Shown here: piece after piece, positions 1-5,605 of the stretch | Numbering within the stretch: the first letter of the stretch is position 1 | Layout: every line of letters starts with the position of its first letter | IMG/VR virus record: IMGVR_UViG_3300037462_000335 | Span: 1-26,219 of that record | Source of the DNA: a virus | Lineage: Duplodnaviria; Caudoviricetes | Direction: 5' to 3' (one strand) | DNA length: 26,219 nucleotides | Translations under genes and position numbers: made by a program | Notes under the pieces: model-generated | What the model saw: the letters and a program-made list of their open reading frames with translations, nothing else | Told to the model about the DNA's origin: nothing | Databases searched by the model: none

Positions 1-179
1 TGCTGGACGAGACCATCGCGGGCGGGGCGGACTTCGTGCAGCTTCCCGTCGAGCCGCTGGTGCCCCGCCACCGCCCGTGGCTGGCGCGGCACATCGGCAG
101 CCATTATTGCGAGGAATTTGCCGAGGCGATGTGTTCACTATCGCAACGAGCCGGCGGCGCGGCAAACATAGGGACTTGA
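1..179 (+). pseudogene. Interrupted host GT2 glycosyltransferase, NfrB-like (phage N4 adsorption protein B family); enters from the left window edge and loses homology after nt 128
   Basis: Frame 3 (from nt 3) reads LDETIAGGADFVQLPVEPLVPRHRPWLARHIGSHYCEEFAEA. This matches my recollection of the NfrB-family motif (QLPV...HYCxEFAEAHGK). The expected HGK continuation is replaced by MCSLSQRAGGAANIGT and a TGA stop at 177-179. Not in the ORF track. Confidence 0.75.
110..150. other. Probable prophage attachment junction (attL or attR) at about nt 128/129
   Basis: Host-protein homology stops abruptly at GCCGAGGCG|ATGTGTTCAC, and the sequence shifts from GC-rich host codons to more AT-rich moron DNA. 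The partner att site and the integrase lie outside the window. Confidence 0.55.
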
Positions 180-270: not shown

Positions 271-864
271 ATGGAGTGGGGTACCATCTCAATTGTAGCT
301 GCATTGATGGCGTTCCTCTCATTGTGTCTGCGATGGCGTTTTCCTTCAGTTCCTCCCTTTTTGGCGAGCGCAGGCGTTGGCGTTGGGCTGTGTGGACTGC
401 TCCTTACGCAGATTTCCCTAGGGTATTGGCTTTCTGCGTCACTGCTCTTGAATGCAGCATTTGTTTTTGGCGTGCTTGATCAATGGTTATTTTCGCCGAA
501 ACAGCTTAGTCCTGCGCTTGACACATCAGGCGCAACCCTGCGCCTAAACTTCTTCGGTGATGACCGGCACCCACTTGCGACGAAAACCGACAACGTCGGT
601 ACGTGGGTTGCCTATTTTTCTCCAGAAATCAGAGCGAAAGTGACCTTAGATGATGGCACGGATCATTATTTGGGGCGCACTCCGAAGACTTGGGTCATCT
701 TCACATCCTTTGAGAACCTGGTCGAATCTACTCAAATCGTGGTGTCGCACAATTCCGGTACGCTACCGCCTTACAACGTTTTGATCTCGACAAAGCAGGC
801 TTGTGCCATAGCTTTCGCTGGTGAGATCCCCCCCGGCGTTTTGGAAATTGACGTTTTGGGATAG
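271..864 (+). CDS. Orphan membrane protein (about 3 N-terminal TM helices plus a soluble beta-rich domain), 197 aa; moron
   Basis: ATG preceded by GGGGG, three hydrophobic stretches in the first ~70 aa, AT-richer codons, and opposite orientation to the late operon. Confidence 0.75.
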   Translation: MEWGTISIVAALMAFLSLCLRWRFPSVPPFLASAGVGVGLCGLLLTQISLGYWLSASLLLNAAFVFGVLDQWLFSPKQLSPALDTSGATLRLNFFGDDRHPLATKTDNVGTWVAYFSPEIRAKVTLDDGTDHYLGRTPKTWVIFTSFENLVESTQIVVSHNSGTLPPYNVLISTKQACAIAFAGEIPPGVLEIDVLG

Positions 865-955
865 ATCGATGGTCAAGTTGACATCACCCGTGTGAAGGTC
901 GGACCGTGTTTGCGCTATGGCGCTGTGATCACCGGCAAAATCAGCGACCGCAAAA

Positions 956-1099: not shown

Positions 1100-1351
1100 A
1101 TGGAAGATTTTGACGCACTTCGACGCGAGTTCGAGCGGGTGAACTTCTTCCCCGGCTTCGACAGCAGCCAGCGCATCTGGTGGATCTATCTTCGCGCAGC
1201 TGTCGAGAAATGGCTGGAGCGCAACGAAGACCCCGAGATCCGCGCTGCCTATGATCGGCTGAAGGAGTCTCCCGAGAACCTGCCCAACGAGGCGGCGCGG
1301 TGGATTGATCTGCGCGATGCGGTGGGGAAGGTGCTGGGCGAGATCTGTTGA
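1100..1351 (+). CDS. Hypothetical helical protein, 83 aa (MEDFDALRREF...)
   Basis: Strong SD (GAGGAG, 1087-1092) ahead of ATG 1100 and GC3-rich codons. The start is revised from the ORF-track 962. Confidence 0.7.
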   Translation: MEDFDALRREFERVNFFPGFDSSQRIWWIYLRAAVEKWLERNEDPEIRAAYDRLKESPENLPNEAARWIDLRDAVGKVLGEIC

Positions 1352-2215
1352 CTAAGCGGACTTGCGGGACAGCACAAACCAAGCGCTGTCACCGTCTCCC
1401 CTGACATTCGCCTGATCGACCTGTGCATTGAGCTCTGCTGCGCGCTCAGGCGAAATCACGAGGTTGCTCTTGCCATCCGATTGCAGAGGAATATCCTGCT
1501 CGTATAGCTCGCTGCCAGCAATTGAAAACAGGGTGCCATCGAAGCCCTTATCGACCACGGCGAAGCCCGATTGAGCAGCCATGCTCTCGAAGCCATCGAC
1601 GGTCCACAGGAAGAAGTGGCGTGGCGGATCTAGGTGCGCCCAGTTCAGCCCATATCGCCTCCACGCGTAACCTTGTCGCACCGGGATGCGGATCACAACG
1701 CGACCTTGATCAGCTAGCAATTCATCGATCTCGGACATCGTTGCCAACGGGTCAGGCACATGTTCCAGCGAATGATGCATCATCACGATGTCAAAGCGCT
1801 CGGAGGGGCGAGCTTTGGTAATCAGCACTGGATCCACCAAATCCCGCGAAAGAAACGGGTCGTAACCGCGAAGGCGGGTAAACCCCCAATCCTTCATGGT
1901 GTGTAGTAACGCGCCTCCTCCACAGCCGATATCAAGCACTGATTGCTCTGCAATAAAGCTGCGTGCCCAGTCCGGTTTTTGGGGAGCCTTAAGTAAGCGC
2001 CTCAGCCGGTCTTTTATCGTCGGCTTGCTCGGAGTAAATGAATAGTATGACCCCTCAGGATAGTGAGCGGTCATGTCTGCTGGGATGTCTTTGATCTGCA
2101 ATGTATCGCAACTTGCACATCTGACATATTCAAATTCTTCGCGAGTGCCGAACATCATCTCACGAAGCACCACAGGCGGTTCGAGCTGGTCGGATTTACA
2201 GATTCGGCAAAGCAT
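1352..2215 (-). CDS. Class I SAM-dependent methyltransferase with N-terminal Zn-binding motif, of the type found in polysaccharide gene clusters
   Basis: CRIC...CASC, VLDIGCGGG (motif I), FDIVMMHHSLEHVPDP, and the LDPPRH motif. Confidence 0.9.
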   Translation of the reverse strand: MLCRICKSDQLEPPVVLREMMFGTREEFEYVRCASCDTLQIKDIPADMTAHYPEGSYYSFTPSKPTIKDRLRRLLKAPQKPDWARSFIAEQSVLDIGCGGGALLHTMKDWGFTRLRGYDPFLSRDLVDPVLITKARPSERFDIVMMHHSLEHVPDPLATMSEIDELLADQGRVVIRIPVRQGYAWRRYGLNWAHLDPPRHFFLWTVDGFESMAAQSGFAVVDKGFDGTLFSIAGSELYEQDIPLQSDGKSNLVISPERAAELNAQVDQANVRGDGDSAWFVLSRKSA

Positions 2216-2221
2216 TCGGGC

Positions 2222-2249
2222 AAACTAGCCAAAATCGTTGCAGCAGCAA
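2222..2249 (-). promoter_or_regulatory. Candidate sigma70-type promoter of the methyltransferase, possibly leaderless
   Basis: Minus strand reads TTGCTG-N16-TAGTTT-N6-ATG, with no SD motif before the ATG. Confidence 0.35.
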
Positions 2250-2263
2250 GACTTTAAGATGGC

Positions 2264-5200
2264 TCAGGCTGTCGGCTCCAAAGGTTGCCCCGTTGCCAAC
2301 GCAGCAGAGAGCGCCGCATATGGCTGATGTGTGGTGGCGAATGGCGTGTCCATGATCTGCCACTGGCCGAAGCGATAGCTGCTTGCCTGCCGCCTGCCGG
2401 GGCCAGCAAAAAACACATGATCGCCGCCGATGCGCTTCAACAAAGTGAAGTAGTCCACCTGTTGTTGGCCGTGCGTTGCAGATGTGTAGAGGGTGTTTAG
2501 CTGTTCCCGGTAGGCGTTCGTGAACACGCTTGTTGTGGCGGTGATCGCCGTCGAAGCAACCGTCTGGCTGATGCTAACAGTATAGGTGCCCGTCCCGCGC
2601 GTGCCGGTGCCAAATCCGGTGATCGTCGTTCCTGCGGCAATACCTGTCCCGGTAATCACATCGCCGACCGCCAAAGTGGCCCGAGCCGCTGCGGTGACAG
2701 TAAGGGTGTTCCCGCTGATTGAGCCGGTGACACGCGGGCTGCTGTCATCGTCGATCCAGTGCTGACCGCTGACCTCGTAGGACATACGACGCAGGGCACC
2801 CGGTTGCAGCCCTCGCGCGACCTCGAAGCTGGTGAGGTACTGATGGATATTGGCCCACTCAGTCATGCCAGCAGTGATGCGCGCGGCATAGCGGGCGTTC
2901 CAAAGGTTCCGGAAGCCGGTCGGGTCGGTGAGAGCTGTGTAACGCTCTGCTTCAGTCATGTAGCTGTTCGAAAAATATGCTTCCGAGCGAGCGACGTAGG
3001 GCGCAATTGCATAGCCGTACAGCTTTTCAAACAAGTTCTCTTCGGCAAGTATCTGGTGGACGGTGGTTTCACCAGCCACCGCCTGCCATGCCGAAACCCA
3101 GCGGAAACGAGGATCGACGCCAATAGCCGCTTCGAAGAGGTCGATGACGTGGCGCAGCGTGCGGGCATACTGAATATGGATGCCGACGCCTACCGATGTC
3201 GCCGTGATCGTACCCTTGCCTGTCACAGTAATTGAGCCGGTCGAGAAGATGGGATCGCACTCGGCGGTCGTTTCAGTCGCGGTCACTTCGATGTAGCCCG
3301 CCGCATTGCCGCCCGCGAACGAACCGGACGTGACCTTGATGCGCCGAACTGTGGCGGTCAGGGCGGATTGGGTTATGGTGTCGCCTTCGACAATCGGCGT
3401 CGTCAATGTGCTGGTGAAGGCAATTGAACGCACAGCGCGATTGCTGTTTTCCTGCGACTGCTGAAACGCCGCGCCGAAGTTCCAGACTTCGTTCGAGTAT
3501 TCGAGCACAACCGGCCCGGTCGTGTTGTCGCGCAGCCATGTCGCCAGAGCGCCGACGCCCGTGCTGTCCTTGCGCAGCCGGTCATATATGTTCACCCACG
3601 GGCGCATCCCAGCCTCGCCGATCGTGGCGAGTGCCTCGTCATAGGATGCTCCAATCACGCCGAGCGAGCAGAAGCGCGGGCTGTTCAACTGCGCGAAGGT
3701 CACGTCCAGGAAGCGCCGTCCCGTCGCTGCCGCACGGTTCGTCAGCAACGCATCCATGCACCGCATATAGCCCTTGGAGAACGGGTCCAGATAAGAGAGC
3801 GTGCCGGGGGCCGAAACCTTTGTGCGGTCTGCACCCTGCTTGTAGATGCGGAAGTAAAAGCTGCCAGCAGGCGGCAGCGCCACGACACCGTTAAACCGCA
3901 CGTCGCTAAAGCCGAACGTGATCTGGCTTGGATTGCCCGGAGGCGCAGCGAGACGAAGAACGCCCGTCCCAGTCGCAAAGTTGGGGCCACTAACCCAACT
4001 TACCCCCGCAGCCGCAAAGCTGAAATTCGTCCATGAGAGTTCCGGCGTGAACTCCACATCGTAATCGCCATATTCGGCGGGATCAAATGCGTCCCCGGCG
4101 TAAAGGAACGCGTAATTGGTGACGCCGCTTGGTACCGTAGTCGGCTTGTTGTCCGAGTTGATGCCCCAGCTCGTGGCGTCGGCAGCGTTGAACGCCCACT
4201 GGTTTGAAGGCACGCCAAGATCGGCCTCTTGCACGGCGATGCGGCGCGAGCAAACATCGCGGAACGTGGGGCCACCAGCAACGCCGTTCCCGCCGTCCGA
4301 CAATTTGAACCGCTGGAACAGGTTGTTGTAGAATATATTGCTGAAGTTCATGCCGAGCGAGAATGACTGCGCCGCCGCTTCAATCGGCACGGCTCGCGTG
4401 CTGCTTGCGATAATGGTGGGCGCTGCCTTGCTGCGAACCCAAAGGCGTACAGTCTGCCCGAAAGCCGCAGCCGGGAGAGCGACCGTGCTGGCCGAATATG
4501 CGCCGCTCGCAGGCGTGATGGTGCCCTGCCAATCGAGCAGAATGCGTCCTGTCGCATTGTTCGTGACGAGATATTCCAGATCGCCGGTTGTGCCGCTTGC
4601 GGTGCCCGAGAAGTCCAGTCGCTTCGATTGAGGTTGGAACTGCACCACATCTACAAGCCCAGGGGTGGCCAGAGTGATGCTGTTTGCCGGAACATTGCTG
4701 ACGCGGATGGCGTCGAAGCACGGAATAGGAAGTGTGAAAGTGGCATCGCTTAGCGCCTGCGTTGCCACGCCAAAATTGCTCGAAGTCGGAACGCCAGACA
4801 CGTCCCATCCCAAACCGCCATTCGCCGCCGCCGACGCGGGAGTCTCCACGCCATTAATGAACAGCTTGGCGTAGTTGCCAGCCACGCGCAGGCGAACGTT
4901 CATCGTTCCCGAGAATGGGTTGGCTGGAAAGCCGACAACCGTAGATGCTTGTAGCTGCACATTTGTGCCGCCGATCCGGCGATTGACGCTGTAACCGTTG
5001 TTCTGCAAATCAACGGTAATACGGTTGTTTGCATCAGATCGACGCGCTTCAATAATCCGGCGAGTGGAAAGGTTTGATGCCGGAGCTACGCCCATGATCA
5101 CGTCGACGCTAATCTCAGCGTCTGGCGATCCGGCGTTGATGAAATAGAAATCGGAATTGTTGCTGTTCCGCGCCAACACCTGCCCACCCTGAATATCGTG

Positions 5201-5605
5201 AACAGAAGTGCCGCTTTGGCGCGTCATGATTGTGGAGAGCAGCGTCCCGTTTGGACGCGCGTTGAAGTCTTCGTTGAACACATCGGTGTTCGGCACACCA
5301 ATCAGGAGGTTTGACCGGGCGGTGATGCCGTTGCGGGTTTCCAGAACGCTGATCGCCCGCCCGTCATCGGTGGCGGCGACATAGGTGTAAGTCGAGCCTG
5401 TAGCGCCAGCAATGTCCACGCCGTCCCGCTGCCACTGGCCCGTCGTCACGCCGGGGCCAGACCATACACCATTGGTCACCGTCAGCGTGCTGCCGTTAGC
5501 AGGCGTCCCGCTGATCGAGGGCGTGGTGATGTTCGCGGCCAGTTGCCCAATCACGCGAGACAGCGGCGACCTGATCCCGCTCAGCGGCGATACGATCTCA
5601 CGCAT
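2264..5605 (-). CDS. Large multidomain virion-accessory protein (Ig-like + lectin-like + putative clan GH-A glycoside hydrolase); candidate depolymerase or head fibre, 1113 aa
   Basis: Ig-like N-terminal motif (PSISGTP...[17 protein letters not shown]). EYSNEVWN (3479-3502) is acid/base-like and YEVSGQH (2759-2779) is nucleophile-like. Overlaps the upstream gene by 8 nt. No signal peptide. Confidence 0.65.

Follow-up and report, generated by a model that had tools for sequence, protein, structure and literature searches.

Introduction

Listeria A118 in comK and the Bacillus skin element in sigK are gene-intervening elements with serine integrases, and the genes they occupy are regulators for which a switch has been demonstrated. 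The element described here likewise appears to be a gene-intervening serine-integrase element, but its target is a GT2 glycosyltransferase (synthase) and not a regulator. Large serine recombinases (LSRs) are also known to enter conserved genes, among them a magnesium-chelatase gene that we take to be comM. In Bacillus subtilis, the prophage SPbeta lies in spsM; its serine integrase is SprA, its directionality factor is SprB and its excision is tied to sporulation, according to PMC5499854. The present locus would share with SPbeta a serine-integrase prophage in a polysaccharide gene, an excision that rebuilds the reading frame and a short inverted repeat around a dinucleotide core. It differs in that excision was demonstrated for SPbeta, whereas here the host is alphaproteobacterial, the target is a GT2 synthase and the frame was restored in silico. 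Magnesium-chelatase and prolyl-isomerase genes are named as LSR targets in the accessible passages of Durrant et al. (PMC10083194). As with those targets, the LSRs that enter a single site in one conserved gene here are diverged members of one clade (50-89% identity); in contrast to them, the gene encodes a surface-glycan synthase, with tyrosine-integrase satellites and an IS1595 at other sites within it. This gene is named neither in those passages nor in eight supplementary files of PMC10083194, and the full LSR database may go further. The available parts of PMC11436027 and PMC11990801 contain nothing on this target, and no report of this integration target was found in the open-access literature searched. 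The pattern, a conserved gene as LSR target, is known; the surface-glycan synthase would be an addition to it.

The stretch analysed (hereafter the window), 26,219 nt long, comes from a virus record. Its minus strand encodes a lambda-like late region that runs from the gpA terminase to lysis and cargo genes. The record consists of the window alone and ends inside the terminase gene, the far prophage end and the phage's own integrase end lying outside it.

Results

The interrupted gene and its product

From nt 3 onwards, frame 3 reads LDETIAGGADFVQLPVEPLVPRHRPWLARHIGSHYCEEFAEA, after which 16 further codons lead to a stop codon at nt 177-179. The first 41 residues (nt 3-125) belong to a PRK14716 (NfrB-like) GT2 gene, and phage DNA follows thereafter; GC content falls from 0.75 at nt 1-100 to 0.45-0.57 at nt 201-900. 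The initial annotation had placed a prophage inside an NfrB-like glycosyltransferase gene, and database comparison bears this out. Among NCBIfam models, the 42-residue window peptide matches those of PRK14716 (NF011307, E 8e-7) and has a weak match to NfrB (E 0.11); it is 100% identical over 42 aa to a 477-aa Erythrobacter-type protein, P0001, whose named relatives at 93-95% come from Erythrobacter and Porphyrobacter. The same fragment gave no useful match to E. coli DNA or to plasmid proteins. The read-through tail and its stop also hold as first described, but the putative crossover core is the GA at nt 123-124 and not the break at nt 128 given earlier; nt 125-128 are compatible with the element arm as well as with uninterrupted host sequence. 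In an alignment of 22 of 120 listed homologues, picked mostly for shortness, intact relatives of P0001 run on past the break as HGKA.VVR; homologues therefore do not end here naturally, as had been considered. Eight of the aligned homologues stop directly after EEF.E, with tails (e.g., TNWSLSQ, TNSSLSQ, PNWTLSQ) that parallel the AMCSLSQ of the window. P0031 and P0078 break one codon later (EEFAD-AQR.ASEPI) and possibly represent a further element type. No promoter or terminator consensus was found in window nt 100-1400. The features of the window are collected in Table 1.

Table 1. Positions of features in the window
Feature	Position (nt)	Strand	Remarks
Host DNA, end of 5' half of PRK14716 GT2 gene	1-124	+	Residues ~182-222 of 477; cut in Glu codon of EEFAE
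GA central dinucleotide, putative LSR crossover core	123-124	+	Sole position common to 13 other left and 9 right junctions
Element arm of attL, somewhat degenerate	125-146	+	Register matches family consensus, 14/22
Read-through tail of truncated gene (Ala + 16 codons + stop)	126-179	+	Parallel tails in other truncated homologues
197-aa cargo ORF, hydrophobic N-terminus, low GC	271-864	+	No family; 8 homologues at 39-52%; other DNA in slot of kin
tRNA-Val(CAC) attP-like core and start of tyrosine-integrase P arm	885-902	-	G001 homology ends here
83-aa ORF common to tRNA-Val-site and glycosyltransferase-site phages	1100-1351	+	G001 88%, G616 84%, L069 84%, G009 and G010 56%
SAM methyltransferase cargo gene	1352-2215	-	Slot has glycosyl- and acyltransferases in kin
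1113-aa likely virion protein (tail-fibre/Hoc-like segments)	2264-5605	-	SASA/GDSL carbohydrate esterases in slot of kin
Lambda-like late region: lysozyme, tail, capsid-protease fusion, portal, gpA terminase	5598-26101	-	Record ends here

The window itself holds a fragment only, and the family was judged on P0001. This protein scores 554.7 against PRK14716 (NF011307), above the cut-off of 431, and 259.6 bits against NfrB (NF008411), below the cut-off of 1170, covering model positions 12-472 of 723. It is indeed an NfrB-like GT2 with the motifs DAED (DxD), TED and QKSRW (QxxRW), as the earlier family call implied, but it lacks the C-terminal MshEN c-di-GMP domain; on these scores the target gene is a short PRK14716 homologue and not a true NfrB. 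No solved structure was found for P0001. The gene is overlapped downstream by one for a 416-aa protein that has no Pfam or NCBIfam match and whose predicted structure resembles the NfrA_C barrel (TM 0.47), which would make the locus a short nfrBA-like polysaccharide locus. The E. coli NfrB/NfrA system is similar in its homologous GT2 domain with the same three motifs and in the downstream gene, here with a predicted NfrA_C-like barrel; NfrB differs in its length (745 aa vs 477 here). According to PMC8669469, E. coli NfrB makes the receptor glycan of phage N4, and the substitutions D267A (in TED) and W330A (in QxxRW) abolish its function. Since both motifs lie beyond the break, in the 3' half, and their E. 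coli mutants lose function, the split gene is likely inactive, and its 5' half would be dead.

The junction as an LSR attachment site

Taken at the level of sequence, the window junction is an LSR attachment site. Pattern scans of virus records, GTDB genomes and metagenomes recovered the same junction; the exact pattern gave 0 matches in viral contigs, and two of three matches in the right-junction scan, which had neither glycosyltransferase nor LSR, were discarded as chance. The 13 other left and nine right junctions all share the GA core and have inverted 22-nt arms with a symmetry of 15-20 of 24. With a matrix built from the 22 other arms, the 22 nt after the window core score 8.8, second best among 52,394 window 22-mers, while moving the start by 1-6 nt gives scores of -13.8 to -26.0, and the sequence that continues in intact host genes has -10.9 to -18.0. 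The arm lies on the weak side of the family (leave-one-out range 5.9-22.7), and 21 of the 22 known arms outscore it in leave-one-out scoring. When the two halves are rejoined in silico, one open frame with TED and QxxRW results in 7/7 relative pairs run; the eighth pair, G238, was left out because it escaped the search pattern. The elements supply no replacement half, right-side matches beginning at residue 207-220.

A separate assembly exists for run X1, which may derive from the source sample; a single contig in it spans nt 99-1129 unbroken, with 0 differences. Loose ends at nt 127-128 in this run continue as HGK, and intact alleles are therefore present in the same sample. Among the X1 contigs, which drop rare variants, none enters from another left arm, and an excision (attP) product was accordingly not seen; depths of 57 (5' contig) and 27 (junction contig) are not taken as a lysogen fraction. 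That the junction is real but decayed, in a grounded prophage, or an assembly chimera is decidedly unlikely. Eight consensus mismatches in the arm, the absence of an excision contig from X1 and the nature of the record, a metagenomic fragment, would be consistent with it, but the unbroken contig in a separate assembly, the exact register of the arm and the open frames of the late genes argue against it. For the window junction, a chimera in particular is very unlikely, grounding less so.

Elements at the same codon in relatives

In Erythrobacter NE805 (G009), the two halves of the gene flank a whole 39.7-kb prophage. Its tail end adjoins the 5' half, an arrangement also found in the window, and a 520-aa LSR with resolvase, recombinase and zinc-ribbon domains lies 2 kb away from the 3' half. 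The halves are 41 kb apart in W302b (G008); the island between them is not a phage and encodes the same LSR (85%). The remainder of the gene, starting from HGK near an integrase, which the initial annotation had expected at the far prophage end, is thus seen in these relatives, beyond the window's own extent. The 11 LSRs seen at this site group together in a single clade (98/98) that is separate from eight others. Seven LSRs from the genus at 50-53% have no piece of the glycosyltransferase gene within 1.5 kb; relaxed tRNA calls beside five of them were dismissed as noise.

LSR elements occur in both orientations relative to the host gene (G009 and G621 against G011, L070, G619, G620 and G238). 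One of them, 16.9 kb long (L108, G292), carries an MmeI-type restriction-modification gene. The W302b island has its own GT2 synthase and a TPR/PgaA-like barrel (L060:5620-8893) directly before the right junction, possibly a replacement polysaccharide system.

A probable tRNA-Val relic and the choice of integrase

Against the LSR reading stand the window, which has neither integrase nor right junction, and the closest complete relative, G001, which uses a tyrosine integrase and tRNA-Val. The structural proteins of G001 are 97-99% identical to those of the window (capsid, portal, terminase and tail tube 98-99%), and nucleotide identity over the late region is 89-97% to G001 (aligned blocks) and 73-78% to a further record, G618 (long blocks). 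G001 integrates through a 48-nt tRNA-Val(CAC) core. The window is homologous to it as far as nt 879-898, and 14 of the 48 core nt remain at that point; the displaced tRNA-Val 3' half of the G001/G002/G616 type is absent from the tail-end boundary of the window. The tRNA-Val site at nt 885-902 is probably an internal relic and not a prophage boundary. Its 18 nt are invariant in 6/6 aligned phages, while the adjoining DNA towards the tRNA has been exchanged at varying points. The motif may be an active cargo-swap site.

The relic could also be explained by nesting, a G001-type tyrosine-integrase phage having entered a secondary tRNA-Val-like site (nt 885-898) in an older LSR element, with nt 125-884 foreign to it and the true boundary at nt ~890. 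Consistent with this are the homology to G001 and G616 that ends exactly at the core, the invariant 18 nt with a tRNA side replaced at different points, loose ends at 884/885 in three runs and the weak window arm. We nevertheless consider nesting quite unlikely. G003, a complete prophage between tRNA-Pro sites with a different integrase, has a single copy of the tRNA-Val site, ~160 nt in from its end, and lacks a second tRNA-Val core. In L069 and run X2, the host sequence of the window recurs (at 95% and 100%) and breaks at the same point; different cargo comes next, and then the segment of nt 885-1100. The order of gene half, arm, variable cargo and tRNA-Val relic recurs in L069, G010 and X2, and independent secondary-site hits within 1 kb of one junction are unlikely. 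G618 has the window phage family with an LSR alone: its late genes are of this family (capsid 72%, TerL 85%), its LSR sits at the position of the G001 tyrosine integrase and is nested among the LSRs of this site (100/99). The ends of the G618 record are trimmed, and its integration site is therefore read from the tree; the record holds no piece of the glycosyltransferase gene.

An early reading, with the prophage end at ~890 and an unrelated gene break, was weakened by G003, G618, L069 and X2, and a match of G617 to the tRNA-Val core, within an ORF of an unrelated record, was dropped. A search of 212 genomes of the genus and 401 of the family gave no window-type prophage in full context, apart from one distant portal match.

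Tail-end cargo

A variable tail-end cassette (window 1352-5605; L035, L038, L069, L090) encodes a large virion-like protein, replaced in kin by a SASA/GDSL esterase, with GT4, acyltransferase, methyltransferase or 2OG-Fe oxygenase genes as neighbours in these loci; this suggests surface-glycan conversion. For the 1113-aa protein of the window, leads to a catalytic fold stayed under 0.9. Glycan-modifying cargo is present both in tRNA-site phages and in the glycosyltransferase-site phage L069. An esterase slot together with glycosyl-, acyl- and methyltransferase cargo in both kinds suggests that the phage modifies its own receptor, which would still be present, and does not remove it.

A hotspot for mobile elements

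The target gene was found in 367/401 family genomes. Mobile elements of four kinds interrupt it in at least 17 of the 366 sampled, while a neighbouring HerA-domain control gene (found in 345/401) is split in 0/344. With this one control gene and related genomes, Fisher's p is 1.4e-5, or 0.007 if four control breaks at contig ends are counted. The target count is a lower bound: from 36 candidates (24 with several matches, 12 weak), 23 were retrieved, and 13 were excluded as adjacent pieces, a paralogue or near full length. The 38 control candidates showed no such split, four ending at contig ends. Left uncounted for the target were G408 (break near the site, without arm or LSR), G211, G258, G280 and G380 (contig ends) and G314 (frameshift).

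The LSR site accounts for five of the 17 split genomes. In three, the break lies ~20 nt upstream of it beside tyrosine integrases, two of these with terminase or capsid genes; seven have an IS1595 of 3.5-4.4 kb at residues ~131 and ~150-155, single-copy in 5/5 genomes checked; two are split at a TEDY site. The elements ~20 nt upstream (L107 in G057, L119 in G363, L125-L126 in G325, and L045) include one of 10.9 kb in G057 with portal, capsid, terminase and helicase genes that resembles a capsid-forming satellite. The IS1595-family element (L111-L117 in G333, G277, G139, G302, G261, G405 and G202) carries passenger genes and terminal inverted repeats, with 8-bp target duplications read by eye in five of seven genomes; it is a candidate target-specific element. 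At the fourth site, TEDY/EL (L109-L110 in G398, L130-L131 in G264), the 22.7-kb element of G398 has E2/ThiF/JAB and patatin genes, presumably resembling a CBASS-type defence operon.

Such an excess of splits by four unrelated kinds of element could indicate that the site is chosen because loss of the glycan shields the cell from phages that use it as a receptor, or because excision is a regulated switch, either of which is compatible with the LSR mechanism. The predicted NfrA-like barrel downstream points the same way, as do the N4 receptor made by the E. coli homologue (PMC8669469) and the switch precedent of SPbeta in spsM (PMC5499854). We regard this as fairly unlikely. Near-identical phages integrate at tRNA-Val, and G003 at tRNA-Pro; together with the glycan-modifying cargo in both kinds, this argues against the knockout being needed. 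Non-phage islands and an IS1595 also use the gene, and the insertions fall at four short sites as sequence-specific targeting predicts, whereas selection for any knockout would scatter them. No phage with this receptor was reported in the open-access literature searched. Unlikely, too, is the broader proposal that a short nfrBA-like system is a major phage receptor across the family and that four unrelated systems (LSR prophages and islands, capsid-bearing tyrosine-integrase satellites, a target-specific IS1595 and the TEDY element) converged to shield the host by switching it off, the LSR acting as a reversible switch.

Discussion

The most probable reading, and one we hold to be likely, is that an LSR prophage cuts the PRK14716 gene where EEFAE is encoded, at the GA of the Glu codon, and that the enzyme stays inactive until the prophage is precisely excised. 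The integrase, a 520-aa large serine recombinase encoded at the unseen far end, would insert the phage at the GA core, and the window's own integrase would be an LSR of this clade. Precise excision would rejoin the halves and restore the frame of the enzyme, the surface polysaccharide likely being off until then. The gene would serve mainly as a conserved, mostly single-copy and dispensable landing pad, much as comM-type genes do, with loss of the glycan a tolerated side effect. We favour the landing pad over receptor loss because the gene is near-universal and evidently dispensable, because its four fixed insertion sites serve phages, islands and a transposon alike, and because near-identical phages do without it.

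The LSR clade, with defined attB and attP in a gene of about nine in ten sampled sphingomonad genomes, offers a ready integration tool. Erythrobacter NE805 and W302b are cultured natural knockouts of an uncharacterised nfrBA-like polysaccharide locus. With this locus, a surface-glycan gene joins the short list of multi-element hotspots, and use as a landing pad and receptor loss are separable there by simple adsorption tests.
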